From the NCBI GenBank assembly GCA_964463195.1, contig CAYXBO010000001.1:1-47060 (forward strand): a DNA stretch of 47,060 nt, read 5' to 3'. The position numbers and the translations under genes are program-made. This DNA comes from an uncultured Christensenellaceae bacterium (GTDB taxonomy: Bacteria; Bacillota; Clostridia; Christensenellales; DTU072). Under the pieces are notes generated by a model. That model saw only the letters and a list, made by a program, of their open reading frames with translations, was not told where the DNA came from and made no database searches. Below are positions 283-43,049 of the stretch, piece after piece. The number at the start of each line of letters is the position of its first letter. The first letter of the stretch is position 1.

Positions 283-311
283 TTGACAACCGTATTTTAT
301 GGCGTTATAAT
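283..311 (+). promoter_or_regulatory. SigA-type promoter of first giant lipoprotein gene
   Basis: TTGACA (283-288) - 17 nt - TATAAT (306-311), a perfect consensus. GGAGG at 343-347 and ATG at 358 follow. Confidence 0.6.
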
Positions 312-357: not shown

Positions 358-3300
358 ATGATGCGTAAAAGCTCGAAAGCATGGATTATAGCCGTCGTTA
401 TAGTCGCAATGCTTGTCTTGGTTTTCGCGATGGTAGGCTGCACCGGTGACGGGGATGTTGATAAGCCGGACAAGCCAATCGATACGGCCGAGGCCCTCAG
501 CAAGGTTATCACCGCAGCGGATGCTACCCTCGGAAAAATCAAGAACAGCAACGACACCGTAAGCCTCGGCTTGACCGTCGGTGTTAAGGGAGAAAATCTC
601 AAGCTTAACATCAACGAGCCGCAAAAAGGCGTTAACGTAAATATCAACGACGTAAACTTCGACGCGAAGGTCAAGGTGGGTGCCAACCTCAGCAAAACCA
701 CCGACAACAACGAAATCCTTGCCGAAATTATGGTAGGCAACGCCGTTAAATTCGGTGTTTACTCTAAGGATAACGTCGTTTACGTACAGGACGGAGTTAC
801 CACGACGTCGACCAAAAAGATAAAGGTTTCCGGCGCTCAGGCTGTCGGATACAACCAATATCTTGACGATATGCCGGGTATTCTTCAGAATGCTCTTAAG
901 AATTTGGACCTTTCCGGCATCGGCGGAATGATTACCAACTTCAAGAGCCTTATAAACGGTCTTATCACGACCACCTCGACCGCGGACGGATATACCTTCG
1001 ATATCGTCTTCGTTTCCAAAGACTCCAATGCGGGACTTGCCCCGATTCTGAAGCAGTTCGGCTCCAGCCTTAAGTTCGGCGACCCCTTCGACGATATTAT
1101 CTCGACGTACCTCCCGTACATTCTCGGCGGTAACTTTGACGATTTCTCCAACGGAACCGTTACTACCACCAGTAAAATCACTTTGGACGTAGGCATCAAA
1201 GACAATATGCTTACCGGTCTCAAAATCAACATTGACCTCGACCCCCTTAAATCCATTAAGGACGTAGGCGGTAAGATTTCCATAGAAATCGGCAATCTCG
1301 TTATCGACAACAAGAAAACCAATATTCTTCCTTCCGACCTCGATTCCTATCAGGAGGGCGCGGTTACCGCAAACCTCGCGCTCGACATTCCGGGCAGCCC
1401 GAAGAGCAAGGACGGCTTGCAGCTCTTTGCAAAAATCGAGTTCTCCCCGAGCCTCAAAGACGAAGACCTCAAACTGAGCGTCGTTGCGAAGGATAAGGAC
1501 GGCAAAGAAGTAGAGCTCGAAGGCGGTTACGTCAATCTGGGCGACGACAAGAACCCCGAATATGCGGTAGTCTTCGATATCGGATATCTCTACGAGGTTG
1601 CCGGAATGAAAGACCAAATACCCGCAACCGGTACCAAATATAAATTCTCCCTGAATATCGACGGTAATAACGTAGGTCTCGGCGACTTCCTTAAGAACCT
1701 CATTCAGAGCCAGCGCGTATTCGTCTTCTTCGACGAAGATTACCCCGATTGGCAGAATTCCTATTATAAAGCCGAATTCTTCAAGAAAAACGGCGATAGC
1801 TTCACTGCAAAAGACCTTGCGGAAATCACCCCGAAGGTTCAGGAGTATTACGTAGCCGAATTCGGCGGCGAAGCGGACGACTACGTAGTCGAATACCGCT
1901 TCAGCGACGGAACCTTGGCGCTCGACAAAGACGGCAAGGGCGATTTAACCAAGAAACAGGCGGAACTCGGTTACAACCTTGAGCTTACCGCAATCGTTAC
2001 GCTTGCAACTGCTGAACACGGCAGCACCTATACCAGTGAGTACGTCAAAGTCACTTTGACCAACGGCACCTCTGCCGGCAAGAAGGAAGTTTACGTACGT
2101 ACCGGTGTGACGGATAAGCTCGCCGAGTACGCTCCCGAGTACACCGTTGCCGACGGTCAGAACTTCGTAGGCTGGCAGGTAGGCGACGAGGAGAATAAGG
2201 ATAATTGGCTCCCGAATCTCGGAAGAGTAGAAATTCTTGAAGATACTACCGTAACCTTCAAGACCGAAAACGTCAGTTCAAAACAGAAAGTCGTGTTTAA
2301 GCAATACAATATGGACACTGCGAAATACGACGATGACGCCTATGCAACCGTATACTTCGACAAGTGGAACCCCAACGGCTTCGACAACAAAGCCAAAAAC
2401 GGCTTCACTATCAGCGATGACGATTTGAAATATTTACCGAAAGTGCCTAAGATTTACGGTATGGAAGGCAAGTGGGTCGTTATCTCCGACCAGAGCTACC
2501 AGGCTTTCGTAGACAAGGGCAAAGAAAACAAAGGCTACTACACGCCTCAGGTTATCGATATGGAGAACTCCGGCAACTACTCGGCAGTTCTCGACAAAGG
2601 CACCGCCACTGTATATCCCGTGTACGAGCTCGCGGACAACGCCGCAGAGATGTGGACGACTCAGTTTACCGTCGGACAGCTTGAGGACAGATTTGTCCGT
2701 CAGACCTTAAACGACGGCGTAATCACCTCTGTCGTCGAAGCGGGCGACCCGTCGCGTGTCGGACAGGGTGCGTTAAACTCCATTCTCGGCAATCTCGGCG
2801 ACATATTCGGAATAATCAAGAATATGAGTGTGGACGCGAACTTCGTCGCGAAAATCATGGGTTACATCTCGCCGTACCTCGGCTCCACCCAGCTGATTGC
2901 GGACCGTATCTTTGTAGCAGCCGGCGTCAAGTACGATACCGTTAAGTATCCGTACGCGCTGCCGACCCTCAAAAACGGTGACAAAACCGTAGACGACACA
3001 AGCGTTGCGGCAATCGACGACGACTTCCTTGCCATGAAGAAACAGTCCGGCGACATCGTTTCTCTCGCGCTCAACCGTTGCCAGAACGCCACAATCTATG
3101 CAACCTATCAGAGATTTGTAGGAATTTACGGCAACTTAACCGATACCGAAGTTGATAAGTTGTTCTGGGATGAGAAGCCGGATGAGAAAACTCCTAATAA
3201 GGATAAGTATTTCGCTGCGAAGACTGCCGAAGCGAGAGCCGAGCTCTACGTAGAATTTGAAGAGTCCAGCTATAGCAGGAAGGTTGAAGATGCACAGAAG

Positions 3301-3723: not shown

Positions 3724-3754
3724 GCCTTGAAGTCTCAGGACAAACAAACAGTAG

Positions 3755-3788
3755 AACAACCGCCCGCAAGGGCGGTTGTTTTTTTTTC
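3755..3788 (+). terminator. Rho-independent terminator of gene 1
   Basis: Perfect 11-bp stem AACAACCGCCC / GGGCGGTTGTT with GCAA loop, followed by a T7 run (3781-3787), 32 nt after the stop codon. Confidence 0.85.
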
Positions 3789-3809
3789 GCCCCTGAGGGG
3801 GAAGGGAGA

Positions 3810-3960
3810 GCGCCGAAGGCGCAATGAAATTGCAACTGCGTTGCAGTGATGCTCCTTGCGTCGCAGTGATATCGCCACTACGTGGCGGTGAAATTCACGC
3901 TGACGCGTGAGTGAAATCAAGCCTTGCGGCTTGGTGAAATCACTCGCCTTCGGCTCGCGG
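3810..3960 (-). repeat. Mini-hairpin array in inverse orientation (about 7 units; + strand reads hairpin + (A/G)GTGAAAT(C/T))
   Basis: Reads GCGCC-gaa-GGCGC AATGAAATT, GCAAC-tgc-GTTGC AGTGATGCT, TGCG-t-CGCA GTGATATC, GCCAC-tac-GTGGC GGTGAAATT, CACGC-tgac-GCGTG AGTGAAATC, AAGCC-ttgc-GGCTT GGTGAAATC, then an imperfect CTCGCC-ttc-GGCTCG. The reverse complement of 3871-3960 aligns ungapped to 136-225. Confidence 0.8.
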
Positions 3961-3988
3961 TTGTGGATTTTATTTAAATATCCTTAAC

Positions 3989-4078
3989 CGCACGCTTGCG
4001 TGCGATTTACCTCGCGCATAGCGCGAATTTACCCAAGCCGACAGGCTTGATTTACCCACGCGCAAGCGTGATTTACCT
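3989..4078 (+). repeat. Mini-hairpin array, ATTTACC type (4 units)
   Basis: Reads CGCACG-cttg-CGTGCG ATTTACCT, CGCGC-ata-GCGCG AATTTACCC, AAGCC-gaca-GGCTT GATTTACCC, CACGC-gcaa-GCGTG ATTTACCT. The conserved word starts at 4004, 4026, 4049 and 4070. It is separated from the inverse array by the AT-rich near-palindrome GGATTTTATTTAAATATCC (3965-3983). Confidence 0.8.
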
Positions 4079-4245
4079 AATCGCGAAGCCTTTGCTTTAC
4101 ACATTTTGCCGAAAGAAAGCTTATTGGCTTCGGGTATAACAAAAATCTTGGTTATTTATCGTGTTTAACTCCGTTTTGCGCTCGCGATGAGGGCGCGTAG
4201 CGCGCCCGCGCGTGTGTGAGATATGCGAAATTCCGGTTTTTGCCA

Positions 4246-4275
4246 TTGACACTATTATTATATTTATAATATAAT
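4246..4275 (+). promoter_or_regulatory. SigA-type promoter of the two-gene giant lipoprotein operon
   Basis: TTGACA (4246-4251) - 18 nt - TATAAT (4270-4275), about 47 nt upstream of ATG 4322. Confidence 0.55.
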
Positions 4276-4321
4276 TAGCGTGTATAAAAAGGGTGAAGTG
4301 CGCCCTTTAAGAGGCAAAGGA

Positions 4322-7300
4322 ATGTTGAAACGCGTAAACCTGAAAAAGATTTTGGTTATGATTTTAGCGGCGGTAATGCTCGTCGCTCTGGTCGCGTGCG
4401 TTTCCGCAGACGACGACGCCAATTATCCTTTCACAATAATCGATAACCAACAAAATAAGCATAACCAAGACCATACCACCAAGGACGAGGCTATACAGCG
4501 CACCTCGGACAGCATTACCAATCTCAAAAATTATCTCAAATCCGCGACGGTTGCGGACACCGGCTATTACATGGAGTTCGATTTCGATATCGACACCGAC
4601 ACGGGAGACAATTTCGAGCTCAAATTCCGCGGCAACCTCTACACTTACCCCTACGAAATCAAGGACGAGAACGGCAACGTCATCGGCGAAGACCCTGACG
4701 CGAAAGCCATTCATAACGAGGTTATAAAAAAGAGCGACCTTCTCATAGAGTGGTACAACGGTCACACCAACGAGCTCATGATAGGGTTCTATTTCGACGG
4801 TGTGAACGCCTCAAAGGAAAACCCAGGCAACCATCTCTATCTCAATTTGCGCGGTTATAAGCGCTGGTACAGGAACTTCGGAAATACCGTTATGTTCCAG
4901 CAGATTATGAGACTTATAACCAATCTCGACATAGAGCTTATTCTTGCCGATAACGATTCCTCTATAGACCAGAGTATAACGAAGTTCGCGACCTATCTGA
5001 GCTACGCCGTCAACGACAACTACAAGAAAACTCAGAACGGTTCCACAACCACGATTTTCTACGAAAATATCGTTCTCGACGCGATTACCGAGGATATCAA
5101 CAAGGCAATCCGCTCTGTGTTCTCGCCCTTTGAAGATAAAATCGACCCGCTGACAAATAAGTATCTCGGGTTTAAGTTCTCCACCTTAGGGCAGGTGCAG
5201 ACCAGAACGTTAAACTCCGACCTCACCTTCCACATCGAGCCCGATATAACCGAAACGTTGGACGTTCTTTACGGCATCGACGTCAAGATGAACGGCACCG
5301 CCATGTCTTACGGCACCTCCGTTCCCTTCCGCTCCAACGCAAACGTCAGATATTCCACAAGGGTTTCAAACGATATCCGCTTCGACCTTCAGGGTTACGT
5401 GGAATTCATTCACGGTCAGTACGATTTTACAGCGCTCTTCGATATCCCCATGTTCAAGCTTCGGTACGACGGCGAAATAATCACTTCTCTTACCGAAAAG
5501 GATAACACGCTCAATAAAATCGACGCGCGCTTCCGCAACCTCGCAACGCAGGAATACGCGGTTATGCTCTTTTACCGCGACGAAAAATTCTATCTCAATA
5601 CCGAAGGTATAGAAGATATCTACGGCGCAATTCAGATTGACGAATTGGGGTTCCCGAAGGTTTTCTACGAGGGAATCGACCTCGCCGCGTTGTTCAGAAC
5701 CTTCTACGATACCGTCAACAACGGTATGGTTTCCATAGTCGACGCTCTCTTAAATCCCGAAACCTATCAGGGTGAAGGGGTAGAGGAAGGTCTTATCCGC
5801 GCAGTAATGGCGAAAATGCGTTCCGAGGGCGACACCATGACCCTGACCGTCGATATCGAGCTTATAAAAGAGGTGCTGCGTTACACTCAGAAGGTTGACC
5901 CCAACGAGGAAAGTCCGTATTACACTTTAGACGACAAGGGGAGACCGATTTACACCACCAAAGGTCTCGTTATGCTGTTCAGCGACTGGCTCGGCTACGA
6001 TATGGAGCAGATTGCCGCAATTTTCGGCGTGGCTTCCGCGGAAATCCTTCTCGAGAGGAGCTGGTTTGAAATAACCTACGACGTGGAAACCAACCATATC
6101 GTCATAGAAATGTTCACAAGCATAAGGCAGGACAGGGCGATTGTGTTCCGACTGACGCTTATTCCCGAAAAGTTCGGCGAAAAGGTGACCTTCCCGACGG
6201 AAATGGAAAACTGGGACAGCTATAAGCCCCTCGAAGAGGTTAAAACCCTGTCCGCAACCTTAAACGGCGACATCCGGTTCGCTTCGAGCGCCGAGGTTGA
6301 TTTGTCCAAAATGCTCGCTTCCTTTATCGACGACCGCTCGGGACTCAATACCGTCTACCGGACGGCGCCCAACGCAAGAATTCTCTTTACTCTCGTGTTC
6401 GACCAGTACATTCAGTACACCGACCCCGAAGGCAACGACAATCTGCAGTTCATTCTCGGCGAGCTCGAGGATAAGGGTATCGAAATCGATATGGAGGAAA
6501 TGGTAGGGCAGATGCGCGGCAGAATGGCGTTCTACTTCTCCATGACCGTCCAGAGTAACCGCGGAGAGGAGCTCGTTGCAAGACTTTACGCCTACAACGT
6601 CGCCTTCAATCAGGACGTTTACGACAGAATTGAAGCGGGGCAGAACGTACCCGAGGGCTACGGCTACGTTTACGTCGATTTGACCGGAGGGCTCAACCCC
6701 GGGCGCGCGGACGTTCCGCTTATGAAGATTAGAGAAGACTATTTTATGCACTCCTTCTTCGACTATACCGGAAAAACCGACGCCGCAAACTCCGCGGCAA
6801 CGCTGTCGATTTATTCCATTCTCATGGCTATTCTCGAGGATTCCACCTTCTACACCACCGACGACGCGATAAGCATTACCACCTCAAACCGCCTGCTGCA
6901 GAGGATTTTCGGAATAGACGACCTCGTCGCCAACTTCACCGCGCAGGTAGGCTTCAGACAGAGAGTCAAGAACCAGTACAGCGTTATCACCATGGTGGAC
7001 CGCTTCGCCGATTACGAGGTGAGCGTGTTGACCGACCTCGAGGTGCTCGGTGTTTACGACAACACCGTTCCCGTTCACAAGACAATCGTGGTGGAATTCA
7101 GGTGGGTAAGCGGCGACGTTCAGACCAGAATTCTGAAGTTCAAATACTACAAGGAGTCCGAGCCCGTTCCCGACGAGTTCTACAACGAAGAGGAATATCA
7201 GGCGGCGCTCGACAAGTACAACGAATATATAGCGAGCAGACACAATATCGATATCGTTCCCGATAAAGACAGATATTATCCCTCCGTAGACGGCACGTTT

Positions 7301-10300
7301 ATGGGGGCGGAAAGGAATTACGTTCTGACCGTCAACGGCGGCGCAAACCAAAGAAACGCCACCGCGAGAATAGAAAGCCTTTACGAAACGGAATTCCGCT
7401 GGGAGCCGTTCGAGGATAAGCCGACTTCTATCCGCGCCGTCAACAGCAATAACGGTCTGGTTATGTATTACCCCGCCGATTTCGACATCGATTGGTCCAA
7501 GGTGACGGTCGACGGACTGGACAGAGCTTACTATACCGTCACCGTAGGTCCCGATTCCTTAGGTGAATTTACCGCTGAAGTTGCGATAAGCGTCATCAAC
7601 AGACGCGTCATAAACGGAGACGGAACGGCAGCCGACGTCGTGTACGTCTATAACGACGGAAAAGAGGTTTCCGCGTCCGTTGCCGCAAGCCTGACAATCG
7701 ACCCGTACGACTATATCGTCAGCCGTTACGCCAGCTCGAAGAGGTTTGAGGACGGCACGTTTATTACCGATTACCTCAAGACGAGAGCTTCGCAGGTTAC
7801 CCTGAACTTTGCGGGCGGCGACAGCGAAAGAGGCTTCTTCGATTGGTACTTCGACGACGCCGACGGCGTGGGCAACAACCGCGAAACCGCAATAAACGAA
7901 AGGGGCGGCAAGCTTTATCTGCACACCTCCTTCCATAAGCAGATTATTGCGCTCGAGCTCACCGTTTTACAGCGTACCGTAGACCATATAAAAATTATCG
8001 GAGAGGAAAAGGATGATACTTATACCGTAGACGTTCTGGACAGAAGCACCTATACGCTTCCCGTCCGTCCGACGGTTTACTTCAGTGACGGAAACGGCAA
8101 CGAAAGCAGCAGAATTTTCGCCTTCGACCTCATCTGGTCGTACGCCGCGGTCGATAACGTCACCATGGAGGGCGCGCCGGACATCGACGGGCATCCCAGC
8201 CCGTTTGCGGGACATATCGGCAACACGGTCAGCGCCTACCTCGATATCGAACGCGCCTTCGGCATAGGCGAATGGTTCGGCAAGCAGATTGTAACCCTGA
8301 CGGTCGTTGCGCCGCCGAAGGTGATTTCAGAACTGTACGAGGTCGGAGCAAGACCGTCCGTCGGTGCGGAGCCCGAAACCAGAAAAGCCGTTTCCATAGA
8401 GGTTCTCGGCACCCGCGAAAGAGGTTACTGGATAATCGACGACCGCTTCGAGTCGTCCTACAGACTGCCGCATACCGTCACCGCGTACTTCGACGACGGC
8501 ACCAATAAAAACTACAACGTGGAGTGGGACACCTCGACCGGACTCGTCACGAGACAGAATAACGACTATACCGTTTCGAGAAGCATAATGAACAATCAGG
8601 ACGTGGAATTCTATTACGTCAACGCCTCCCTCGACGACGTCTATCCCTTCAGCCTCATTATCGTGAAGCTTCCCTATAAAGGGAATATAAGCGTCGCCGC
8701 ATGGAACAGAACGGAAGGTCGGGACGACGTCCGCCTATCTATCGAAGAGGACGGCAGTGTTGCCGGAAGATATATCTATCAGGTAAATCCGTACGACGAC
8801 GTGTTCCTAACGCCCAACGTCATAGAAGAGGTGTTTGCGGGATATGAGGAAAACGGTATTCCGATAGGAATTGCCGTCGGAAGCGGGGAACGGCATTACT
8901 TCCGCAACAAATACGCCGTAAATCCTGCGGTCAGCGGTCTCGAATACGTCTACGTGCTCGGAGAGAGCAACGTGTCCGTTACGGTAACGGTGGAGGTCAC
9001 GACGGACGGAACCGTCGCCAAATCCATAGAGTTCCTGAATGCGGGAGTTACCGCCGGAAGCGGAGAGCATACCGTTTTCGCAGACTCGACGGTTACGATG
9101 GAGGTGAGCGCCGTTGCGGACAGCGTGAAGCGCATTCTTATCGGAGGACTGGAAGTCCCCGCGGACGGCGTGATAGTTGCCGGAGGCAAGAATTATTCCG
9201 CGAGAGGGCTCGTGGAATATCTGCTTTCCAACGTAAGAATTACCATGGAGGACAACTCGCAGAAGATAAGAAATCCCGAAATCGTCAACTTCAACGGAGT
9301 TTTCAATTCTGCGGAATTGCAAAACGGTATAAATCTCACTATGCGCATGTCGATAGTTCCGGGAATTCTCGATTACGAGGTCGTAGTTTCCGGACAGACG
9401 GAAAATCTGCATCCGGAAGTTAAGAACGTCGAGATTACCTTGCAGCCCTTCGACTCCGACCCCGAAAACGGCGAGAGATACCGGAACGGTTATTCCCTCA
9501 CCACCCACAGAGTGGAATTCGAGGACGGAACGACCGAAACCTTTACCGATTGGTACGTGGGCGCGTTCAACGGCGTGAGCGGACTTAAAGTCGGGCAGCT
9601 CATAAGAACCATTACTCCGGAAATGCTGCTTGCGAAGTACCCCGTGGATTCTACGGTTGATATCACCGTCTACACCTTCCGCGCGGACGACTCGAAGATT
9701 AACGTCAGGTTTAAGATTCCGACCCTTGACTGGACCAAGTTCCAGAGCATAAACTACAGCGGTGAGTTTGCGATTACCGACGGCGTTATCTTAATAAACG
9801 ATATGTACGCTACGGATATAACCTCAATAAGAGGAGTTCTCGACAGACTGCCCACATCTATTCGCTTCTACAACATAGAGGTGAACAACGTAAGATGGAG
9901 AGCCGCCGACGGCGCCGAGGAAAAGCTTGCGAATTTAAGGTTCGACGACAACAATCAGTTTGCGCTTGCGACGGCTACGGTCAACGCGGGCGGACTGTTT
10001 GACGTAACGCTGAAAATCCGTTTTGCAGACTGCAAAATCGGAAGAGTGGAGGGCTTCCCCGTTCAGAAGCCCGACGGTAACGGCAATCTGACGGTGGAAA
10101 TCAAAATCGACCCGTATGCGGAGGGTTCCACCGGAACGTATACTCTGCCGAGAGATATCGTCTTAAGATACAGCGGTTCCTCCAACAGAACGCACACCTT
10201 CTACGGCGTGGAGTACCGCCTCGGAGACAACGCGCATGCGGAACGTTCTATTCCTTATATATATAGCGGCTTCTCCGACGGACTTCAGGGCGGCGAAAGA

Positions 10301-12043: not shown

Positions 12044-12055
12044 GTGAGATAAAGG

Positions 12056-15000: not shown

Positions 15001-18000
15001 ACAGTTTGCATTCGATTATCATGCGGTCTCGGGAGAGGTGGCGGTTGACCCGCTCCTAAAGCTCATCGGAATTTCCAATCTCTCCGCAAACGGCACCGTA
15101 AAGGTAAACTATTCCCCCGACATGGAGGAGTGGAAGGCGATGAACGCCGACGAGGGCTCCTTTATCGAGCCGAAGCTTGAGAATTTCCCGACCATAGTCG
15201 ATAATTACGAAAGCATTTACGACGCGGAATGGATAGAGGAGATTTCCTTCTTAAATCCCGAGCTCGACGGCCTGACGCTCAAAATTCCTTACGACCCCGA
15301 AACGGTTAAGGTCGTGACCGGAAAGAACACTTATACGCCGAGAGCCTCCCTTCTCGGACAGGTCCTGACCTATACGCTGATGTTAAGAGGCGGTGAAAAC
15401 GCCACCAAAGTCGCCGTCGAGGTCGTCGGCAACGCAATAGTATTCGACAGCTACGAGGAAAACCCCGTCCACGAAAAAATTGCCGTAAGATACGACGACG
15501 GAACGGAAGGCGAGGTTAAATATACCATAAAAGGCTTCAGCGAAGACCTCATTACCGAAGCCGGTATGGCTGCGGCTCCCTATACCGTGGTAATCGGCGA
15601 GGGCAAAATTGCCGAAACGGTGTTCGAGGGAGTAAGAGTCAGCGTCAGAAGCCGCGAGCTCGTCAAGCAGAATCCGGAAAATACCGACGGCTACGGCAGC
15701 CACTACCAGAGCACCGTTATCGGTTCCACGTCCGTTGACCCGTACGCGTACGCATTAAACAACAATTCAGGACTCGACCTTCCCGAAGCTTTGAACCTCA
15801 GGTTCTGGGAAGACGTAATAAACGACGACGGAACGACGGCTAAAGCCGTAATTCTCGACGAGTTCTGCTTCGATTGGGAGTTCGACGGTAAAATCGACGT
15901 GTCCGGCGGCACCTTCTATGCGCGCGTCGCGCGTATGTATAAAAAGGATAGCGACGCGGTCTATAAGGTTCCCGACTTGGTTTACGAAATTAACGTAATG
16001 CCTAAAATCTTCAGCTACGTTCAGTTCGGCGAGGAAAGCGGCAGCGGAGTGTATACGGTGGACGTGTTCGACAGCTCTACCTATTCCATCCCCGCAAGAA
16101 GCAGAGAGGGTTACCGCCTCGCAGTCTATTTTGCAGACGGTCATTACCGCATCGTCGGAAGCTCTGCTATGGGTCTTCCTACCGACGCTATGTTCGACGG
16201 TTATCTGGATATGACGTTAAACTGGAAATATCCGCAGGCAACTCACTTTGCACTCACGGGTTACCCCAACCCTCTCGGCGGAGAGACGGCGCAGAACACC
16301 GCCGTTCTTGCGGTCGACGGCTTGTCCTCTCAGGAGATAACCGCGAGAATTCTCGAGCCCACGAGAAACGTAAGAGAAGCGGGTACTGTTTCCGGCGTCG
16401 TGGAGAACGTGATTTCCGACGGAACGGTTTTACGCGATATAAGAAGCTTCCGTTACGACAACGTATCCTTCGGCGACAGCGACTACATAACCGTCAATCC
16501 GTACGCAACCGAAGCGCTTCCCGACACGATAACTCTCAATATCGAGGACAGAGTTACCGGCGTAATTACCAAGTTTACCTATCCCGTGGAGAGATGGCTC
16601 ACGGACGGCGACGTTATAAAGGAACAGGACGGTAAATACCTCCTTAAATATCCGGCAACCGAGGAAAGCTGGTTCAGAGCAGTAGCGGTCGTCGGAAACG
16701 GCAGAGTTACCGACCAGATTACAGTGAGAATTTACAATCCCGACGCGGAATACGCGGCGGTCACCTTCGACGGCTACGGCGAAAACGTCCTCGAGACGGT
16801 TGCAGACGCCTATTCGCCGCTAAAGCTTCCAAAAGGCTTCAGAATACGCCTCTACGACGGTACTGTTCTCTCGTACGGCGACGGAGACGGCGCGAGAGCG
16901 TTTGAATGGAAAGTGGATTTCGGGACGGAAAGAGAAAGCGACGTTCCCATGCTCACTGACTCCGAATATAACGCCTTCCGCGCGTTTATCGAAGGGCGGA
17001 GCAGAGTTTACGACCCCGTCTGGTTGACCAAAGGCTACAGCTTTGAAAACAGAGACTACAGCGTGGTGTTTACTGCGCACGTTCCGTCTGACGTCAACGG
17101 CTCCCTCGAGCAGGCGGTGGAGTTTACCGTAAACGTCAGAAGCCTTAAGCCCCGCGGAGTGGACGACGGCGCGGCTTCGTATCTCAATACCGGCAATATC
17201 AACCGCTACGGCTCGGACAGCGCGGAGCTTCTGAGCGCGTTGACGGAGGGCGGCATGTCCGTGCTTCCGATAAAGATGTACGCCCCGCAGAATATGTCGG
17301 AGATTACCTATTTCTTCAAGGTGGACTGGGCGGATAACGCGGCGTTCGAGAGCTTTACCGACGGATTGAAAGCCGTTGACGGCGGCGCGGAGTATGCACT
17401 TTCCGGAACGATATTCAGAGACGTTGCCGAAAAAGACCAGACCTTCGACGTGAGCTTCAGAACCCGCTCCAACGAGGTTCTCGATTCGGCGAGCTTCTAT
17501 TTCAGAAGCCTTTCCACGGCTCTTTCGGAAATGATAACCTCCGAATACAAAATCGACGGCGGCAAAAAGACCCTTACCGTCAACCTTCTCGAGCCGTACG
17601 CTCTTAAGCTTCTGAAAGGCGGCGCGTTCGGATACGCCTTGCCGAGCGAATATTTCGCGTTTACGCTTTCCAATATATATATCGTATTCGGCGACGGCTC
17701 GACGGGTAGCTATATTACGGACGCCCAGACGGCAATCGCCGCATATTCGGCAAACGGTAAGACCTTCGACGCGGCTGTTTACGATTTCGGCGGCGGAAAT
17801 ACCGAAAGCTCCGAAACGGAATTCGAGATAAGAATATCCGACGGCAGCTGTGAGGATTACCTGTCCGTAAAAATCGTCGCGACTCCCGACGTTGCGACGG
17901 TCTTTACCACGCGCGTTTCCGTCGAGCCGTACAACGACAACGGAACCCTTAAATATACCATTGAAAACGGCTACGCCGCAGGTTGCCCCATGTCCAACGA

Positions 18001-21000
18001 ATACACGGTGACCTACAACAATTCGGGAGTGGTCGTCTACTCGATAGACTGGACGATAAACGACCCCCTCACGAACAACGGTCTCGGTCTCGTCTATAAC
18101 GCTTCGGAGGGCGTCTGGTATCTGCCGATTGCTAATATTAAGGAAAGCGGCGGTTCGTCGACGTTAACCGGTGTTCTTCCGGACGGCACCGAGGTTCAGA
18201 GGGTAGTTTCCGTAAATCCCAAGAATATCGGCGGCACGGCGTATACCGCTCAGGCGGCGGAGGGCGGTTATTCCGCGGTAAACGGCACCGTAAACCTCGC
18301 CAACATGTATCAGTTATTTGAAATTATGACGGTTTCGGACGGGAACCGCGTGATAGACGTTGCAAAGCTTCCGTCTGTCATCGAGCCGAGACCGACGGCA
18401 ACGTTTGCCGGTTCGACCGTGTTTACCGTCAGCTGGCAGACGGAAAACTACTTCTCGGTTGCGGCAAACGGCGCGATAAACGGTGAAAAGACCGACGACG
18501 GGCGTTACCTTATCGCGCACGCGGATATTTCCGGCTATAACGGCGAAAGCCAGCGCGTTTACCTCTATATTAACGTTGCGGAAACCGAAGGTATTGCGGC
18601 AATCCGTGCGGACGGCTACGATTTCCGTCTGGAGGGTGACGCCTTCCACCTCTACCTCGACCCCTATAAGGACAACGGAGCGGGCGGTTACGACTGGACT
18701 GTAAAGCTTCCGACAGCGGCAACCGTCGACCTCTTCGGCGGCTCGACGAGCTATGCGTTTGCCTCGGGGCTCGTCTATAAGTACGGCGATATAACCGTAG
18801 AGCAAGCGGTTATCGACTATAAAACGCTCATTAAGCTTACCGGAGACGTTGAAACGGCAATTGACGGAGACACGGCGGAGCTCACTTTGGTTCTTCCGGA
18901 CGGCTTCGGGGTCGGGGTTACCTTAGAGGTCATTCCGAGAATAATTGCAGAAGACGGCGTAGAGGTTCCGTTCACGACCTCGGACGGAAGCACCGGCTAC
19001 CGCGCCGGAGCCTATTTCGTAGACCCGTACAATAGCGGCACCTATGATATCCCAACTACCATACGCGTGTGCTTTACCGACGGCGCAAGCCTTGACTTGA
19101 ACGTCGAATGGAATATCGTCGGCGCAAATTCCTTCACTGTTGACTACAGAGGCGGCGAATACGCCTTTACCGCAACCCTCGGCGGCGTGGGAGTGGATAT
19201 CGGAGACGCGCAGGTAATAAATCTTGACGTTACCGTCCTCGACCGCTCGCTGAAAGAGGACTTCGAGGCTTCCTCCGACGGAATGACTGCCAGGAACACG
19301 GGCGGCACGCTCGTTATAGAGAGACGTTTTGAAGATTATATAGGAGCGAGAGTGTCCGATATCTTCACGCACGCGTTCGTACCTTCCGATTTCGCGCATC
19401 CGGAGTTTCCGGAAGCGGGCGATATGAGCCTTGCGTATCCCGTTTTAAAGATATTCGGCGCGGGCGGCATAGAAGCGGGCGACGACGCCATAGTCAACGG
19501 AATGGCAGCCGTAGAATTCTCCGCGGCGCTTTCTGCGGGGACCGTCAAAGGGCAGCCGGCAAAGGTAGAAATAACCACCGACAGATTGACGTTAGTGGAC
19601 GATTTCGGAGATTTTGCGGCGTCCGACGGCGACAGGCTCTATTTCAATCCCTTCAGCAAGGATTCCCTTAAAACGGAATTCCGCTTAAGGTTTGCGGCTG
19701 AGACTTACGACCCCGAAACAGGCTGGACGGAAGCTCCGGACAAGCTTCTGACCTTCTATACCGAAAAATCTTCGGTAGGAGATTCCGAGCGCTCGAGAAG
19801 ACTTATCTACTGGGACGACGACATGTCCGCCGCGTTGTCCGGCGTTGCGGGATTTGCCTACGGAAACGAGGCAAAGCTCGTCGGCCGCGTGGAAAACACC
19901 GTCAACTATATCTATCTGCAGGTCAAAAACGTCAGGCTCGACTTGGGTTACGGCAGTAAGGAAAGCGGAATGGAGCCCTTCGATTACGTAATAGACCCCT
20001 TGACGCCCGAGCTCGTCTATACCGCTTACGCCGAGGGCAAAATAAACGGCGAATGGTACAGCCTCGGCAACGTCGTGCTCACATGGAAGGAAAGCGAGCT
20101 TTTAAGCGGCATATCCTTTACAGGAGAGCCGAGAAAGACCACCGGAGTTTACCTCGACGCTGGAGTGAAGGGGCTCGACGCCGTTCCGATAACGGTCAAC
20201 GTTTATTACCTCGACAGAACAGTCAAGAAAGCCTTCACCGACGAAAGCGGCTTTACCAACTACACCGAAGGAAATCTCTATAAGATTTACGACGACGGCA
20301 TCGTCAATTTCGGCGGAATGACTATCGACCCCGTCGCCAAATTTGAAAGCGGACGCTACGTGTATCCGTCCAATATAACCGCCGAGTTTGCGGCGGAAGC
20401 CTCAGGCGCTCCGCAGTCGGTTATAACCGCCGCGGTGGAAAAATACGGTCTGAGACTTAAGCTTACCGACACGCTCTGGGGGCTTAACGGCAAATCGGTG
20501 ACGCTTGCGGGTACGGGCTCCTCCCCGATAAACCTCGCGCTTCTCAGCGGAACGGTCACCCGCGGAGAGACTGCTTTCGTTTCGCAGTTTATGGAAACGG
20601 CAAATCAGAGCATCAACCCGTTCGTGTTCAAGATGAGCGTTCTCGACAGGGCGATTACCGCAACAAGCATTACCCACGCGCTTGACATCCACATGGCGTT
20701 CGACGGCTCGGACGGGCATCCCGACTACAGCATCGACCCGTACAATATAACCCTTCCGAAGAGCGTCGTCGTTACCTTCGGGTCGGGGAACGACACGACC
20801 AAAAGAACCTATACCTGGCAGAACGAATACGGTGAGCTGTGGACGTTCAACGACGAATCCTTGCAGAAGCTTCAGAGAGAAGAGATTATTAACGGCGCCG
20901 TCCTCGCCTCCGATATGTTTGCGACGGCATACTTTACAGTCAATTCGGAGACTTTCGAGGTGACCTTCCCGATAATCGCGAGAGTCATCGACGTAAACGG

Positions 21001-23710
21001 CGACTGGGGCAGCTCGGAGGTCGTGTCCGACGGCATGATTCCCGGCGGAACGATTTACGTCAAGGCGGGAACGAGCGCAGCCGACACCGTTTCGCAGCTT
21101 CCGAAGGAAATCTACTACAACTTCGCGCCGAGCGCCGACGTTACCCCCGATTATTCGCCGGTGCCGCTTAAATTTGAAACCGTAAACTTCTTCAGAACGG
21201 GTTCTTATACCTTAAGAGCCGTTATGGGAAAGGTGAGTAAGGAATACAATATCCTCTTCAACGTCGAGGTTATCGACCCGAAGCTTTACGACATCAGAAC
21301 GGTAACCGACGCGGTAGGCACGGTAATAGACTTCAACGGGTACGACTTCGTGTTGGATACGCTTCCCGTTTCCGTCAACTCCTCGGGTAACCTCATGGCG
21401 GGGCTCGAGGACGATTGGCTGCCCGAATATATTGCGGCGTCTGACGGGAATTATATCCGCGTCAGCGGTATTTCCTATTCCGTCTCGGAGATGAAGGCGT
21501 ATCTTACCTGTACTTACGAATTCATTTCCGCTTCCGACGGTCCGAGAATTGCAGGACGCGCGGACGGCGAAAAGACCAGAGATTTCGTGTTTGAAGTGCC
21601 GCTCACATTAAATTCCACCGACAGACTAAGCGGCGACGCGGAGCTTTCCTCGGATACGGTTATAACCGAGCTCGGTCAGCCGATTCTGCTGTCTGCAATG
21701 CCGGTCGTACTGTCCGACGGAAGGGAATACAGTCTGTTCTGGGACGTTGCGGCGGGCGGAGTGGATACCAACGTGTCCGGAGAGTATTCGGTAATCGGAT
21801 ATCTTCTGGATTCCTTTAATTCGGTCAGAGAGTTCAGAGTAAAGGTCGTCGTTGCAAAACGCGAGCTGTTTCCGTCGGAATTCGGCGTTACCGGAACCAC
21901 AATCGACGGTCGCGTGGAGATTTCCTTCACCGGTCGCCGCGTCGACTGGCAATACAGAGTTCCTCAGAACTGTATAGACGAAAACGGCGACAGATACGCA
22001 CCCGTTCCTACGTTCACATATTCAGCCGACGGCGGACAGAGCTGGACTGCCATTCAGCCCGTGGCGGTCGGTACTTATCTCATGAAAATGACCGTGGACG
22101 ATACCAACGTGTTCGGCGAAAAGACCGTAACCCTCAGAATAAATAAGGCGCTTATAAACACCGACGACATCTCGTTCGCGGATACTACCGTCGTCTATAA
22201 CGGTATGCCGCAGCAGCCGACGGTTATAGGGCTTCCGCAGTCCGTCGGGTTCTCCTTCCGCATGACGCGCCGCACCGAATCGGGCGACACCGTGCTGCAT
22301 CCCGAGGGAGCGGTCAACGCTTACGTCTATACCGCAACGCTCATCATCGAAGAGAGCGACAGCTACGTGTTTACGGGTCTGAACTTCCGTACGGTAACCT
22401 TTACCGTAACCCGCGCCAACCCCGCGTACAGAGCCGCCGCAAGCGAAACCTATAACGGTCTCGACAGGCATATTTACGTGGAGGGTATGCCCGAATTCTT
22501 CACGGGCGGCATGACCGTGGTTTACACCTACACCAACACCGCGACCGGCGCCGTGACGACCAACAGAATAAGGAACGTCGGCGTATACAGATACACCATC
22601 GAAATACACGGCGGTATCAACTATTACGACAACAACCTGAGCGGAGAGTATTCCATAACTCAGGCGCCGCTTACCGTTGACGTGGGGAATATCGAGGTTC
22701 CCTATCTCGACGAAATGCTTCCTTTAAATTCCGGAGTGACGGTAACGGGCGTGGTCGGAGACGACGCGACCAAGGTGTTCGGCTCTGTGTTCGGTGAATT
22801 AACGCTCAGCTCGCCCGTGCGTCTCGACGGATATTCCGCGCCCGGCTCCTATCCGATATACGCAAGCGGACTGAGAAACAACAATTACCGCATCGAATAT
22901 ATCGACGACAGAGGAAACGACAGCGGCAATTACCGTTATAATATCGTGCTGCCCGAGGGGACGGTGGACGTCGCGACTGCTGCGGAAGCTGAGGGAATAA
23001 GCGCCGCGGACATGCTGAGAAAGCTGATTTCCGAGGCTAAAACCGGTGATTTGAAGCTGTATCTTACGGCAGGCGAATACGGCGACGTAACCCTTTCGGA
23101 CGCTTCCGTATCCCTCTATCTCTACGGCGAATACGACGGGGACGGAAAGCTTGCCACGGTTCTCGACAGCATGACGGTCAGCGGCGGAACGGTCAATCTC
23201 TACGCCTTGTCCTTTAAGGCTCTCGAAGGTATTGCGTCCGTCCGCCTCGAAGGAAAAGCGGGCAGCTTAATGCTCGACAGAGTGGAATTTGCGGCGAAGA
23301 CGAACGCAAGCGGAGCATGTTCGGTCGCTTCCGGTTCGGTGGGCGTTTACGCGGGGCAGGAATTTAAGGGCAACGTCACGGCGTACCGCATAAGCGTAGC
23401 ATACCGCTTTACCGGAATTTATATGGCGGGCGGAAGCCTTAACGTGGAAAATTCCCTGTTCGACGGTTGCGTAGCGGGTATAGAAGCTCAGTGCAAAAAC
23501 GTGAGCATAGCCGACAGTGAATTCGCGCATTCCACGCTCCACGCGCTGTATCTCACCAATGCGGAGACGACTGCAACAATCTCCGGCAACGAATTCCGCT
23601 ATAACGTGGCGGCAATCAAATACAATTTCCGTCTGAGCCTCTCCGGTAGCGCCGAGGTAATCAACGAAAACGTGTATTTCAAGAACAACGAAAATCTCAT
23701 TTCGCAGTAA
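12056..23710 (+). CDS. Giant surface lipoprotein (3884 aa): paralogous N-terminal module, DG/YY repeat insert, Ig-like-type repeats, MBG-like repeats, C-terminal parallel beta-helix-like region
   Basis: Uninterrupted 11.7-kb ORF starting 12 nt after the previous stop. MKKAKLFKNLILILMAAAILVLALFAC = lipobox LFA|C. MBG-like signature: ITQAPLTVDVGN...GDDATKVFG...GSYPIYASGLRNNNYRIEY. Beta-helix-like repeats: NVENSLFDGCVAGIEAQCKNVSIADSEFAHSTLHALYLTNAETTATISGNEFRYN. Confidence 0.9.
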   Translation: MKKAKLFKNLILILMAAAILVLALFACTTDTDDNGDPTGTDAPTYTREQILGKLSTSLDTSVKKLADERKTGTVTTTSEYSIIVEDLKYTVKYNAAIDYSHVENSRIYFKIYDDECTMTRIMAYYDAGTLYYENNGRRQKVAGFGTSGIFPLFLSLIENFDMSYSLGTIADIVSGTALENLIRSDNLKLYGAGENRTNISIQGIELDTLKTVPNGMIADFFSSFGTAFDAIGTELLGTSISDLGMLRIRSLDANYVEFYSENDVFDQMYFDFSGYMETLSPFSIKGGFKTVTGFNAVEVEALDDEVRYRSAIDEIALKNGFSAEQKAAYLEKYRYHDFYLGKGSFAGTVSFPSMNVTYDATLDYTLNYNDNAQNLMIFKIKDGGLDAAAAYYLDGKLYIDAGTLYDVFNAGFGLSYFNLPKAVVADFDLSAFLARVIDVLDNVVRESNVDVSEETKSRILKILVSKIESNGPVIGITVDKELIDALNQISSNPVDAANVAAYLGSVLGVSQTFIDNILSASVFDSMALVLSFNLATGGFATELLFNGSTVVRCDFEAVSATTEIYETVKGASVSAKPMADGSIGLYVTLDGKTYYLSADDGAVVGSDGVRAGSYFLEQKRFGIDGAVYSFAAPDLIAQHDNSKVGIFSLVQKKLSVDGVTYRIEDGRVLYETLSGSFDGQSLAIGNARYFVRDGKIYATSDGTDVLGKVENGVVTLGQTEYFTEDGDLFRIAGSIRANGDLVSVSVGEGIYIVATGKVMRDRGIYRSDEGIITLDGVNYYVNDGKIYQTVDFATETGAIDAENSKITVNGVDYYFDEARKEVGQHVFGDVIYPEEAGFVASGELKVAGMQSQDISKLLGAFIGDSLGLNTPIVLNATDRLKFDVKVAFGTDGEDGVYIKLTLKTRAGTETVLVEIATVDGSSDTVLIDFRLLDIRFRSPSSEVVGAFRRFAGEGSIFGEEDILSALIAALAEASVGYDSNGIQFAFDYHAVSGEVAVDPLLKLIGISNLSANGTVKVNYSPDMEEWKAMNADEGSFIEPKLENFPTIVDNYESIYDAEWIEEISFLNPELDGLTLKIPYDPETVKVVTGKNTYTPRASLLGQVLTYTLMLRGGENATKVAVEVVGNAIVFDSYEENPVHEKIAVRYDDGTEGEVKYTIKGFSEDLITEAGMAAAPYTVVIGEGKIAETVFEGVRVSVRSRELVKQNPENTDGYGSHYQSTVIGSTSVDPYAYALNNNSGLDLPEALNLRFWEDVINDDGTTAKAVILDEFCFDWEFDGKIDVSGGTFYARVARMYKKDSDAVYKVPDLVYEINVMPKIFSYVQFGEESGSGVYTVDVFDSSTYSIPARSREGYRLAVYFADGHYRIVGSSAMGLPTDAMFDGYLDMTLNWKYPQATHFALTGYPNPLGGETAQNTAVLAVDGLSSQEITARILEPTRNVREAGTVSGVVENVISDGTVLRDIRSFRYDNVSFGDSDYITVNPYATEALPDTITLNIEDRVTGVITKFTYPVERWLTDGDVIKEQDGKYLLKYPATEESWFRAVAVVGNGRVTDQITVRIYNPDAEYAAVTFDGYGENVLETVADAYSPLKLPKGFRIRLYDGTVLSYGDGDGARAFEWKVDFGTERESDVPMLTDSEYNAFRAFIEGRSRVYDPVWLTKGYSFENRDYSVVFTAHVPSDVNGSLEQAVEFTVNVRSLKPRGVDDGAASYLNTGNINRYGSDSAELLSALTEGGMSVLPIKMYAPQNMSEITYFFKVDWADNAAFESFTDGLKAVDGGAEYALSGTIFRDVAEKDQTFDVSFRTRSNEVLDSASFYFRSLSTALSEMITSEYKIDGGKKTLTVNLLEPYALKLLKGGAFGYALPSEYFAFTLSNIYIVFGDGSTGSYITDAQTAIAAYSANGKTFDAAVYDFGGGNTESSETEFEIRISDGSCEDYLSVKIVATPDVATVFTTRVSVEPYNDNGTLKYTIENGYAAGCPMSNEYTVTYNNSGVVVYSIDWTINDPLTNNGLGLVYNASEGVWYLPIANIKESGGSSTLTGVLPDGTEVQRVVSVNPKNIGGTAYTAQAAEGGYSAVNGTVNLANMYQLFEIMTVSDGNRVIDVAKLPSVIEPRPTATFAGSTVFTVSWQTENYFSVAANGAINGEKTDDGRYLIAHADISGYNGESQRVYLYINVAETEGIAAIRADGYDFRLEGDAFHLYLDPYKDNGAGGYDWTVKLPTAATVDLFGGSTSYAFASGLVYKYGDITVEQAVIDYKTLIKLTGDVETAIDGDTAELTLVLPDGFGVGVTLEVIPRIIAEDGVEVPFTTSDGSTGYRAGAYFVDPYNSGTYDIPTTIRVCFTDGASLDLNVEWNIVGANSFTVDYRGGEYAFTATLGGVGVDIGDAQVINLDVTVLDRSLKEDFEASSDGMTARNTGGTLVIERRFEDYIGARVSDIFTHAFVPSDFAHPEFPEAGDMSLAYPVLKIFGAGGIEAGDDAIVNGMAAVEFSAALSAGTVKGQPAKVEITTDRLTLVDDFGDFAASDGDRLYFNPFSKDSLKTEFRLRFAAETYDPETGWTEAPDKLLTFYTEKSSVGDSERSRRLIYWDDDMSAALSGVAGFAYGNEAKLVGRVENTVNYIYLQVKNVRLDLGYGSKESGMEPFDYVIDPLTPELVYTAYAEGKINGEWYSLGNVVLTWKESELLSGISFTGEPRKTTGVYLDAGVKGLDAVPITVNVYYLDRTVKKAFTDESGFTNYTEGNLYKIYDDGIVNFGGMTIDPVAKFESGRYVYPSNITAEFAAEASGAPQSVITAAVEKYGLRLKLTDTLWGLNGKSVTLAGTGSSPINLALLSGTVTRGETAFVSQFMETANQSINPFVFKMSVLDRAITATSITHALDIHMAFDGSDGHPDYSIDPYNITLPKSVVVTFGSGNDTTKRTYTWQNEYGELWTFNDESLQKLQREEIINGAVLASDMFATAYFTVNSETFEVTFPIIARVIDVNGDWGSSEVVSDGMIPGGTIYVKAGTSAADTVSQLPKEIYYNFAPSADVTPDYSPVPLKFETVNFFRTGSYTLRAVMGKVSKEYNILFNVEVIDPKLYDIRTVTDAVGTVIDFNGYDFVLDTLPVSVNSSGNLMAGLEDDWLPEYIAASDGNYIRVSGISYSVSEMKAYLTCTYEFISASDGPRIAGRADGEKTRDFVFEVPLTLNSTDRLSGDAELSSDTVITELGQPILLSAMPVVLSDGREYSLFWDVAAGGVDTNVSGEYSVIGYLLDSFNSVREFRVKVVVAKRELFPSEFGVTGTTIDGRVEISFTGRRVDWQYRVPQNCIDENGDRYAPVPTFTYSADGGQSWTAIQPVAVGTYLMKMTVDDTNVFGEKTVTLRINKALINTDDISFADTTVVYNGMPQQPTVIGLPQSVGFSFRMTRRTESGDTVLHPEGAVNAYVYTATLIIEESDSYVFTGLNFRTVTFTVTRANPAYRAAASETYNGLDRHIYVEGMPEFFTGGMTVVYTYTNTATGAVTTNRIRNVGVYRYTIEIHGGINYYDNNLSGEYSITQAPLTVDVGNIEVPYLDEMLPLNSGVTVTGVVGDDATKVFGSVFGELTLSSPVRLDGYSAPGSYPIYASGLRNNNYRIEYIDDRGNDSGNYRYNIVLPEGTVDVATAAEAEGISAADMLRKLISEAKTGDLKLYLTAGEYGDVTLSDASVSLYLYGEYDGDGKLATVLDSMTVSGGTVNLYALSFKALEGIASVRLEGKAGSLMLDRVEFAAKTNASGACSVASGSVGVYAGQEFKGNVTAYRISVAYRFTGIYMAGGSLNVENSLFDGCVAGIEAQCKNVSIADSEFAHSTLHALYLTNAETTATISGNEFRYNVAAIKYNFRLSLSGSAEVINENVYFKNNENLISQ

Positions 23711-23728: not shown

Positions 23729-23757
23729 TTGACAACGGTAAAAACAAAGTATATAAT
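23729..23757 (+). promoter_or_regulatory. SigA-type promoter of the five-gene protease/cohesin/signal-peptidase operon
   Basis: TTGACA (23729-23734) - 17 nt - TATAAT (23752-23757), a perfect consensus located 19 nt after the gene 3 stop. GGAG at 23793-23796 precedes ATG 23805. Confidence 0.6.
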
Positions 23758-31903: not shown

Positions 31904-32442
31904 AAGCAAACGTTAAGAACATCCTTATAACCTTACTCGTTTTCGTCATCGTAACCTCGGTGGCGGTTATAGTTACGGGAATTCTGTTCGCCATCGTTCC
32001 GATAAACGGAGAGAGTATGCACCCGACCGTAAGAGACGGGGATTTCGTTTTCATACTGAAGGTTGGGTCGTTCAAAAGGGGCGACGTCGTGGTTATAGAG
32101 AACCCTAACGCGGATGGGAACGCCGAAAGACTCCTGAAAAGGATTATCGCCGTCGAAGGCGATACGGTTGAGACGCGCTTCGTTGACGGTGAGGAAAGGT
32201 ATTTCGTAAACGGCGAAATGCTGGACGAGCCCTACGTGAACAACGGGCAGGAGGCGAAGGGAAGACAGCCTATGATTACCGTTCCCGAGGGGCGCTTTTA
32301 CTACCTCGGCGACAACAGAAGGGTGTCCGCCGACAGCTATTCGTCCTCGGTAAGCGGCTCGAAGCTCGGCTATATGGACCATATCGTCGGAAAAGTGCTT
32401 TTTAAGGGCAATTTCAAGGAGTTCAGTTTTGCCGGAGTTTAA
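31900..32442 (+). CDS. lepB: Type I signal peptidase (S26 family)
   Basis: ATGA overlap with the upstream gene. N-terminal TM. Catalytic Ser box INGESMHPTV, Lys box LLKRIIAVEGDTV and box E YYLGDNRRVSADS, all in canonical order. Confidence 0.85.
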   Translation: MKANVKNILITLLVFVIVTSVAVIVTGILFAIVPINGESMHPTVRDGDFVFILKVGSFKRGDVVVIENPNADGNAERLLKRIIAVEGDTVETRFVDGEERYFVNGEMLDEPYVNNGQEAKGRQPMITVPEGRFYYLGDNRRVSADSYSSSVSGSKLGYMDHIVGKVLFKGNFKEFSFAGV

Positions 32443-32455: not shown

Positions 32456-32503
32456 TACAAAAACAGCTATTTTCAAGCGGATATTTTAATCTAAAATAGG
32501 GCT

Positions 32504-43041: not shown

Positions 43042-43049
43042 CACACAGT

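Follow-up and report, generated by a model that had tools for sequence, protein, structure and literature searches.

Giant predicted lipoproteins with a new N-terminal module, encoded by a conserved gene cluster of Christensenellales-type gut bacteria

Giant adhesins and the three predicted lipoproteins

Fibrillar adhesins are defined by their great length, a stalk, an adhesive region and a surface anchor (Monzon and Bateman; PMC9210967, PMC8286594). Here we analyse three consecutive genes, g1, g2 and g3, of an uncultured Christensenellaceae bacterium (contig CAYXBO010000001.1; its 47,060 nucleotides are called the window below), whose products we take, with somewhat better than even confidence, to be lipid-anchored, adhesin-like giant surface proteins standing on a new and conserved membrane-proximal base. 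The likeness to the fibrillar adhesins of Firmicutes lies in g2 and g3: both are among the longest proteins of the proteome, both are predicted to be anchored at the surface, and the proteins contain immunoglobulin (Ig)-like, stalk-type Big_4 domains and candidate MBG-type domains, which often occur in surface adhesins. Their length (2573 and 3884 amino acids, aa) is that of a fibrillar adhesin, but a lipobox takes the place of the known anchors (LPXTG, SLH or cell-wall-binding). This predicted anchor of g1-g3 is N-terminal instead of C-terminal and thus the polarity of the proteins is reversed. Two further differences concern g2 and g3: the presumed stalk consists of strongly diverged domains, each conserved on its own, and not of near-identical tandem repeats, and the base is a module of ~900 aa of no described family, while no adhesive domain scores over threshold.

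The second system to be compared is that of the LapA/MpIBP/SiiE-type adhesins of diderm bacteria. These are substrates of the type I secretion system (T1SS) that are held in an outer-membrane pore and contain RTX repeats and near-identical BIg repeats. The three predicted lipoproteins would share with them the general layout, namely a module for retention near the cell at the N-terminus, then a long Ig-like extender, and ligand-binding domains at the C-terminus. Contrastingly, g1-g3 have a Sec/lipobox signal and neither RTX repeats nor a T1SS signal, and their hosts are Clostridia. By analogy, g1-g3 may most resemble giant N-terminally retained adhesins in the way they work, yet they belong to no described family. 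Christensenellales-type Clostridia are widespread, mostly uncultured gut bacteria, and to our knowledge their surface biology has hardly been described; our literature search on giant lipoproteins in Christensenellales found nothing relevant.

The three open reading frames (ORFs) follow each other on the + strand (Table 1) and measure 3.4, 7.7 and 11.7 kb, in total 23.3 of the 47.06 kb of the window. The first-pass annotation, made from the sequence by a model, had described three such ORFs filling half of the window, and its coordinates and sizes were borne out (the g1 protein is counted from the MMRK start). In DNA of 52% GC, chance cannot produce ORFs of 3.4-11.7 kb; moreover, the three are intact and conserved in 27 or more species, which rules out chance ORFs and pseudogenes. 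A lipobox rule of the PROSITE PS51257 type, which asks for a positive n-region, a hydrophobic h-region and [LVI][ASTVI][GAS]C within the first ~40 residues, is satisfied by all three proteins: MLVLVFAMVGC in g1, AAVMLVALVAC in g2 and AAILVLALFAC in g3. The lipobox cysteines pointed out earlier (MVG-C, LVA-C and LFA-C), each with an acidic linker behind it, are therefore those that the rule selects. Each protein has a single hydrophobic segment and is acidic overall. The lipobox cysteine is at least 90% conserved among 36 module sequences and does not vary within the g1 family. Among family members of more than 1,500 aa, a lipobox was recognised in 68 out of 73, and the remaining five look N-terminally truncated. 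In agreement with what had been noted before, neither an LPXTG-like motif nor a C-terminal transmembrane (TM) segment was found in g1, g2 or g3, and Pfam detected no SLH or other anchor domain in them; sortase-anchored and SLH proteins are ruled out, as such motifs are missing.

In the lipoprotein pathway a precursor is exported by Sec, Lgt adds diacylglycerol to the lipobox cysteine and LspA then cleaves the signal peptide. The g1-g3 products would take this route, and the mature proteins would be tethered via their N-terminal diacylglyceryl-cysteine to the outer face of the cytoplasmic membrane. Neither lgt nor lspA is found on the 47-kb contig.

The N-terminal module and its family

Comparison of g2 and g3 by BLASTP gave a colinear match over aa 1-515 (22% identity, E 1e-15) and a second block (E 6e-13), and the whole N-terminal module of ~900 aa can be aligned once three database relatives are added. 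By these alignments, the two genes are clear paralogues with a colinear ~900-aa N-terminal module in common, and the colinear stretches listed in the first-pass annotation hold: the motif quoted there, DLSKMLASFIDDRSGLNT / DISKLLGAFIGDSLGLNT, proved to be the most conserved stretch of the module, with D660, S662, L665, F668, D671, G674, N676 and T677 invariant. Within the g2 family, the identity to relatives is mostly 34-64% in the N-terminal module versus 14-36% distally (50% in one alignment window). The module is itself internally duplicated. In g2, aa 45-215 match aa 340-480 (hhalign probability 87%, E 4e-6), and in g3 aa 90-185 match aa 355-447 (E 3.6e-5). The recurring Y(Y)xDGxLY strands that had been remarked upon are thus real and can be traced to this duplication.

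The g3 module additionally carries a repeat insertion, aa 560-840, which is absent from its relatives (2-5% identity) and consists of YYxDG-type hairpins of ~20-30 aa. The insertion resembles choline-binding or cell-wall-binding repeats (Choline_bind_1/3/4) in these hairpins and in its weak matches to three families of that clan. All three matches, however, lie under the gathering thresholds: Choline_bind_3 reaches 16.2 bits (E 0.01; cut-off 27), Choline_bind_1 12.2 bits (E 0.25; cut-off 20.5) and Choline_bind_4 E 0.49. The insertion also differs from such repeats in having no GW/aromatic signature and in being missing from the orthologues.

The relation of g1 to this module is more distant. 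BLASTP of g1 against g2 or g3 finds similarity confined to the signal peptide, and a first hhalign comparison (85% probability) was rejected as a signal-peptide artefact, the E-value being 0.39 after removal of the first 44 residues. With deeper profiles of mature sequences (20 g1-like versus 67 g2/g3-like N-domains) hhalign gives 89% probability and E 2.2e-6 over 284 colinear columns, spanning positions ~30-336 in both, against E 0.5 for reversed-sequence controls. Within the window, the best non-self matches of each family hidden Markov model (HMM) are the other lipoproteins. The g1 N-domain is also matched by the upstream lipoproteins of other loci over the first ~420 aa (hhalign 99.2%, E 3e-19), and five homologues of g1 were found at 40-68% identity. 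A secondary-structure string comparison of the g1 and g2 AlphaFold models gave z = 3.8 versus shuffled elements, but the reversed string scored nearly equally and the test is non-discriminating. According to the profile comparison, then, g1 shares with g2 and g3 only the first domain of ~330-450 aa, as a remote homologue, and not the whole module. The proposal that g1 is a stand-alone copy of an ~800-1100-aa module thus holds for this first part, while the rest of g1 is not shared. The proposed pairing of g1 DSYQ with g2 DSYK DSYKPLEEVKTLSATL has to be given up, since these positions are not homologous in the profile alignment: DSYQ..VTANL of g1 aligns with GYVEF..FTALFDIP of g2 and not with DSYKPLEEVKTLSATL. 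Taken together, g1-g3 have in common a new N-terminal alpha/beta domain of ~450 aa with a duplication inside it, which in g2 and g3 is extended to the module of ~900 aa.

The search for a known family was extensive. Pfam returned no match for g1, a single Big_4 match above threshold for g2 and borderline Big_4, MBG_2, MBG_3 and Beta_helix matches for g3; 36 N-terminal modules and 20 g1-like proteins searched one by one at E<=1 gave no consistent family, and three giant relatives gave nothing. Nothing was found in NCBIfam, or in the PDB when searched by sequence (all three proteins) and by profile (N-terminal module, whole g3 family and g3 C-terminus). The earlier statement that the module cannot be assigned to any family therefore stands, and the profile searches place it in no characterised family.

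Structure prediction gives only a lead. The AlphaFold models of the N-terminal module, based on 11 and 6 sequences, are of low confidence (mean predicted local distance difference test score, pLDDT, 57 and 54). The word-indexed protein searches had yielded 3, 9 and 5 relatives, and hence the alignments were shallow and the models poor. In the better-predicted stretches long beta-hairpins alternate with helices. The lone Foldseek match in the PDB below E 1e-3 is the microsomal triglyceride transfer protein (MTP, 6i7s; g1 model, E 9e-4, probability 0.91). Weaker matches of the g1 model are LolA (9azz, probability 0.92), 4egd (0.84), AttH, RseB and ApoB, and those of the g2 model are LolA (9azz, probability 0.57), 4egd, 3buu and AttH. 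The predicted N-domains share with LolA, LppX and RseB long antiparallel hairpins packed with helices, and the weak matches come from both models. On the other hand, sequence similarity is lacking, and the N-domain is roughly two times larger and contains a duplication. Membership in a LolA-like fold would take a TM-score above ~0.5 of a confident model to LolA, LolB, LppX or RseB; the LolA-type matches have TM-scores of at most 0.34, root-mean-square deviations (rmsd) of 10-15 Å and, for LolA, E-values of at least 0.014, and the models have a pLDDT of 54-57. With one match below E 1e-3, low TM-scores and low-confidence models, we do not accept the assignment to a LolA-like fold.

The family itself is small. 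When 1.84 billion representative proteins were searched exhaustively with a profile, 97 clusters scored E<=1e-3, and 69 of these E<=1e-30, in keeping with the earlier suggestion of a family of giant predicted lipoproteins. The full-length members almost all have 2,300-6,800 aa (the longest 6803 aa) with the module at the extreme N-terminus, and they fall into two subfamilies: g2-like proteins end in the motif '..G.TY.S.L..L..', and g3-like proteins have a beta-helix followed by a '..QN.F..N..D..' tail. Scanning 185,579 species, each represented by a single genome, gave 27 loci, all in uncultured gut Clostridia labelled Christensenellaceae, Christensenellales, Christensenella sp., Candidatus Stercoripulliclostridium or similar, with one bin labelled Ruminococcus bicirculans. 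The closest g2 orthologue is 49% identical, and the g2, g3 and g4 (see below) products are singletons in the protein-cluster collection.

Distal domains, gene cluster and competing readings

Behind the module, Ig-like domains can be recognised. Big_4 (PF07532, cut-off 22.1 bits) passes once in g2 (34 bits) and lies just under the cut-off in g3 (22.0 bits); an HMM that was started from the Big_4-like unit '..IDPY....LP..V.V.F.DG....V.W..' and iterated picks up the units listed in Table 1. The remaining g3 matches are sub-threshold: MBG_2 scores 21.6-24.8 bits (cut-off 25), MBG_3 17-23 (25) and Beta_helix 18.5-21 (25.9). Big_4 is found in 7 of 13 family members, and MBG_2, MBG_3 and Beta_helix also recur among the members, with best E-values of 1.5e-6 for MBG_2 and 9.5e-6 for MBG_3. 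Other internal repeats in the distal parts are nearly undetectable. At the same time, g3 aligns colinearly from end to end with 18 representatives (mutual identity at most 50%), with many invariant W, P, G and Y residues. Because g3 is colinear over its full length and has few internal repeats, the distal region is, as far as alignments can tell, a string of individually conserved, mutually divergent domains and not a classic tandem-repeat stalk. One g3-like relative, in locus L029 (8-11338; more than 3776 aa, its N-terminus cut off by the locus end), contains an insertion of ~1,500-2,000 aa that separates its Ig-like region from the MBG/beta-helix part at the C-terminus. To the eye the insertion is rich in helices and in Ala, Glu and Lys. 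Behind this g3-like gene there is no g4-like one.

These genes form part of a conserved cluster. The g2-to-g3 tandem is present in nearly every locus that extends far enough, and a lipoprotein of 680-1230 aa lies directly 5' of the g2 orthologue in 14 of the 16 loci with upstream sequence. The next gene, g4, has a homologue (27% identity, E 1e-25) in the metagenomic locus of a distant relative, where it comes right after the g3-like gene, and for this reason g4 is probably the fourth member of the cluster. A metagenome scan with g4 alone found nothing, and a scan with a four-sequence C-terminal alignment found 2 loci. The perfect sigma-A consensus TTGACA-N17/18-TATAAT occurs exactly 3 times in the window versus 0.01 times expected by chance, always on the + strand and 47-48 nt before the start codons of g1, g2 and g4. 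This perfect promoter is also seen before g1-like or g2-like genes of ten further loci (before g1-like genes in 9). As g3 starts 12 nt past the g2 stop codon, g2 and g3 are probably co-transcribed. The promoters, the terminator after g1 and the 12-nt gap would together define three transcription units: g1 alone, g2-g3, and g4 with downstream genes. The conservation of such strong promoters speaks against silent genes, and the cluster is probably expressed. The cluster, found in Christensenellales-type gut metagenome-assembled genomes only, is thus predicted to encode three lipid-anchored surface proteins and a small TM-anchored partner.

If g1-g3 are indeed adhesin-like, their parts could work as follows. 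The N-terminal module would be the base near the membrane and the wall, bearing in g3 the cell-wall-binding-like repeat insertion, which at that position fits the wall-proximal placement of the module. The following 1,600-2,800 distal aa, with their divergent domains of Ig-like (Big_4-type) and other beta-rich kinds, would form a long stalk that carries the C-terminal parts beyond the wall, where the ligands would most likely be glycans or other cells. In g3 the distal binding parts would be the MBG domains and the right-handed beta-helix. The reach of g3 is estimated at ~100 nm if its distal part is mostly Ig-like with ~4 nm per ~100 aa. The polarity of such proteins, with an N-terminal anchor and a C-terminal tip, would be opposite to that of sortase-anchored Gram-positive adhesins. 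In the g2 family the base is indeed more conserved than the distal part, as one would expect if the protein is exposed and its anchor region is under constraint.

The fibril or adhesin interpretation draws on the size of the proteins, the Big_4-like Ig domains, the sub-threshold MBG and beta-helix matches and this conservation gradient. Several points weigh against it. No recognised adhesive domain exceeds a curated threshold in these proteins, the MBG and beta-helix matches of g3 included. Only 4-5 Ig-like units are detectable per protein, and the remainder is 'dark', conserved across orthologues and not tandemly repeated; this distal pattern could equally suit a multi-domain machine or an enzyme array. 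The AlphaFold models of the module are of low confidence, with pLDDT values of 57 and 54. Expression, lipidation, surface exposure and binding are predictions made from the sequence. Thus, of the earlier proposal that these are lipid-anchored giant fibrils or adhesins, the family of giant predicted lipoproteins stands, while the fibril or adhesin part is something we still infer; the distal part is no classic array of near-identical repeats.

Alternatively, the four co-encoded proteins might form one hetero-oligomeric envelope structure held together through the shared N-domain and mainly architectural in role, be it a layer on the surface, a scaffold across the wall or something associated with the spore coat. 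The kept order g1/g2/g3/g4 across divergent species, the single N-domain common to all three lipoproteins, the identical perfect promoters, which suggest high and coordinated expression, the base being the most conserved part and the sporulation gene nearby (SpoIIE) would all agree with this. However, no SLH or other known S-layer anchor is present, and the neighbourhood of the cluster varies: mfd lies upstream in locus L001 and downstream here, so the linkage to sporulation is not conserved. We regard such a structure as unlikely.

About equally unlikely is the notion that g1-g3 capture or degrade glycans at the surface, with distal domains, the beta-helix among them, that bind and cleave dietary or host polysaccharides in analogy to the large cell-anchored glycanases of gut Firmicutes. 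The C-terminal Beta_helix match of g3, which belongs to the pectate-lyase/polysaccharide-lyase fold class, recurs in relatives; faint GH101_N and CBM60 matches appear in g1-like relatives; the carriers are gut organisms; and domain-by-domain conservation along the whole of g3 suits functional modules better than a passive stalk. Nevertheless, no glycoside hydrolase, lyase or carbohydrate-binding module exceeded the threshold in 13 full-length or 20 g1-like members, the PDB profile searches came back empty, and no sugar transporter or regulator adjoins the cluster in the window. The glycan-degrading role is therefore doubtful in our opinion.

A bolder proposal combines several of these elements: g1-g2-g3-g4 would be one hetero-oligomeric, envelope-spanning apparatus, in which the duplicated N-domain, as an undescribed LolA-like lipid- or lipoprotein-binding fold, nucleates assembly at the membrane and connects the latter with the wall and with a giant structure outside. 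We consider it improbable. Least credible of all is that the N-domains are LolA/LppX/MTP-like lipid-binding half-barrels and that the proteins handle lipids or lipoproteins where membrane and wall meet. Folds of the LolA superfamily, together with other beta-sheet folds that bind lipids, are among the top Foldseek matches of both independent models, but the TM-scores, the rmsd and the one match below E 1e-3 speak against it, the matches may be meaningless with models of such pLDDT, and 2,000-6,000 aa of distal domains would be left unexplained. Phage or mobile-element cargo is ruled out, the neighbours being housekeeping and sporulation genes.

Features of the window and biological meaning

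The features of the cluster are collected in Table 1.

Table 1. Positions of the genes, domains and signals of the cluster in the window.
Feature	Position	Strand	Basis
g1, predicted lipoprotein, 1121 aa, lipobox Cys28, apparently its own transcription unit	358..3723	+	ORF and lipobox rule
g1 N-domain, aa ~40-450, remote homologue of the first domain of the g2/g3 module	475..1707	+	hhalign
g2, predicted lipoprotein, 2573 aa, lipobox Cys26	4322..12043	+	ORF; orthologues in 27 genome loci, 26-49% identity
g2 N-terminal module, aa 27-~900	4400..7021	+	Alignments; most conserved part of g2; without Pfam or PDB match
Part of g2 in which five Big_4-like Ig units can be detected, aa 1120-2128	7679..10705	+	Pfam Big_4, iterated HMM
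g3, predicted lipoprotein, 3884 aa, lipobox Cys27	12056..23710	+	ORF; colinear over full length with 18 representatives
g3 N-terminal module, aa 28-1080, paralogous to the g2 module	12137..15295	+	BLASTP, alignment, internal repeats
YYxDG repeat insertion in the g3 module, aa 560-840, lineage-specific	13733..14575	+	Internal repeats; missing from relatives
Part of g3 in which four to five Big_4-like Ig units can be detected between divergent beta-rich domains, aa 1326-2979	16031..20992	+	Pfam, iterated HMM
g3 MBG-type domains, aa 3319-3617	22010..22906	+	Just under Pfam cut-offs
g3 C-terminal right-handed beta-helix region, aa 3786-3879	23411..23692	+	Sub-threshold Pfam; C-terminal motif kept across g3-like proteins
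Perfect sigma-A consensus promoter TTGACA-17-TATAAT, 5' of g1	283..311	+	Pattern match
Perfect sigma-A consensus promoter, 5' of g2	4246..4275	+	Pattern match; kept before g2 orthologues in loci L001, L002 and L005
Perfect sigma-A consensus promoter, 5' of g4	23729..23757	+	Pattern match
Strong intrinsic terminator after g1, 13-bp stem, 7 GC pairs, T-run	3753..3782	+	Terminator structure
g4, 406 aa, N-terminal TM anchor	23805..25025	+	Homologue 3' of a g3-like gene in locus L028

The surroundings of g1 contain several repeats. Two inverted repeats (128-225 and 3871-3968; 98 nt, 91% complementary) bracket g1 together with its promoter and terminator. Their arms are strings of ~16-nt GC-rich hairpins (e.g. 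CAAGCC-NNNN-GGCTTG) with a constant GTGAAAT spacer, in which the stems are kept and the loops vary, and a third related hairpin array lies at ~3990-4075. The hairpin motif was found neither in the rest of the window nor in 29 loci. The arrays could be repetitive extragenic palindromic (REP)-like elements, or they could form the ends of a segment that is able to invert or to move. The contig starts (1-70) with a tandem repeat of 14-nt period (AGTGAAAAGTGAAG) in four overlapping 28-nt copies.

Downstream of g4, the stretch 25063-29535 encodes a 1490-aa protein with an N-terminal TM segment and the zincin HExxH motif HETGHVLGAPDYY, for which the Peptidase_M6 (E 0.036) and Peptidase_M7 matches are sub-threshold. 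Its C-terminal 'GDFSGDGRVSSEDISVF' is dockerin-like by eye, and it has Big_3-like repeats in common with the next gene (29532-30257). The latter encodes a 241-aa lipoprotein (lipobox LSG-C) with a Big_3 domain and a C-terminal domain that is cohesin-like by eye, where Pfam gives only a weak HphA_C match. The two proteins could be a small cohesin-dockerin surface tether. Further along, 31900-37139 and 42436-46469 hold genes for signal peptidase I (S26), SpoIIE, a 772-aa Big_3 lipoprotein, peptidyl-tRNA hydrolase (by eye) and Mfd; the presence of SpoIIE suggests that the organism is spore-forming. Between these stretches, at 40078-42038, two adjacent multi-pass membrane proteins with the motifs EELLFRG and EEFFNRG are by eye like CPBP/CAAX-type intramembrane proteases.

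What is new here is a domain family of ~450-900 aa that has no counterpart in Pfam, NCBIfam or the PDB, the predicted lipobox anchoring of proteins of 2.5-6.8 thousand aa and a conserved four-gene cluster in a gut clade. Current searches for fibrillar adhesins look for LPXTG or known anchor domains, and therefore giants anchored by a lipobox are missed by them. The conservation of the cluster, its strong consensus promoters and the size of the encoded proteins, which runs to several thousand residues, make its products good candidates for major surface structures that contact host mucus, dietary particles or partner microbes. If the N-domain should turn out to be a lipid-binding or assembly module, these Clostridia would have a new means of assembling large structures on their surface.

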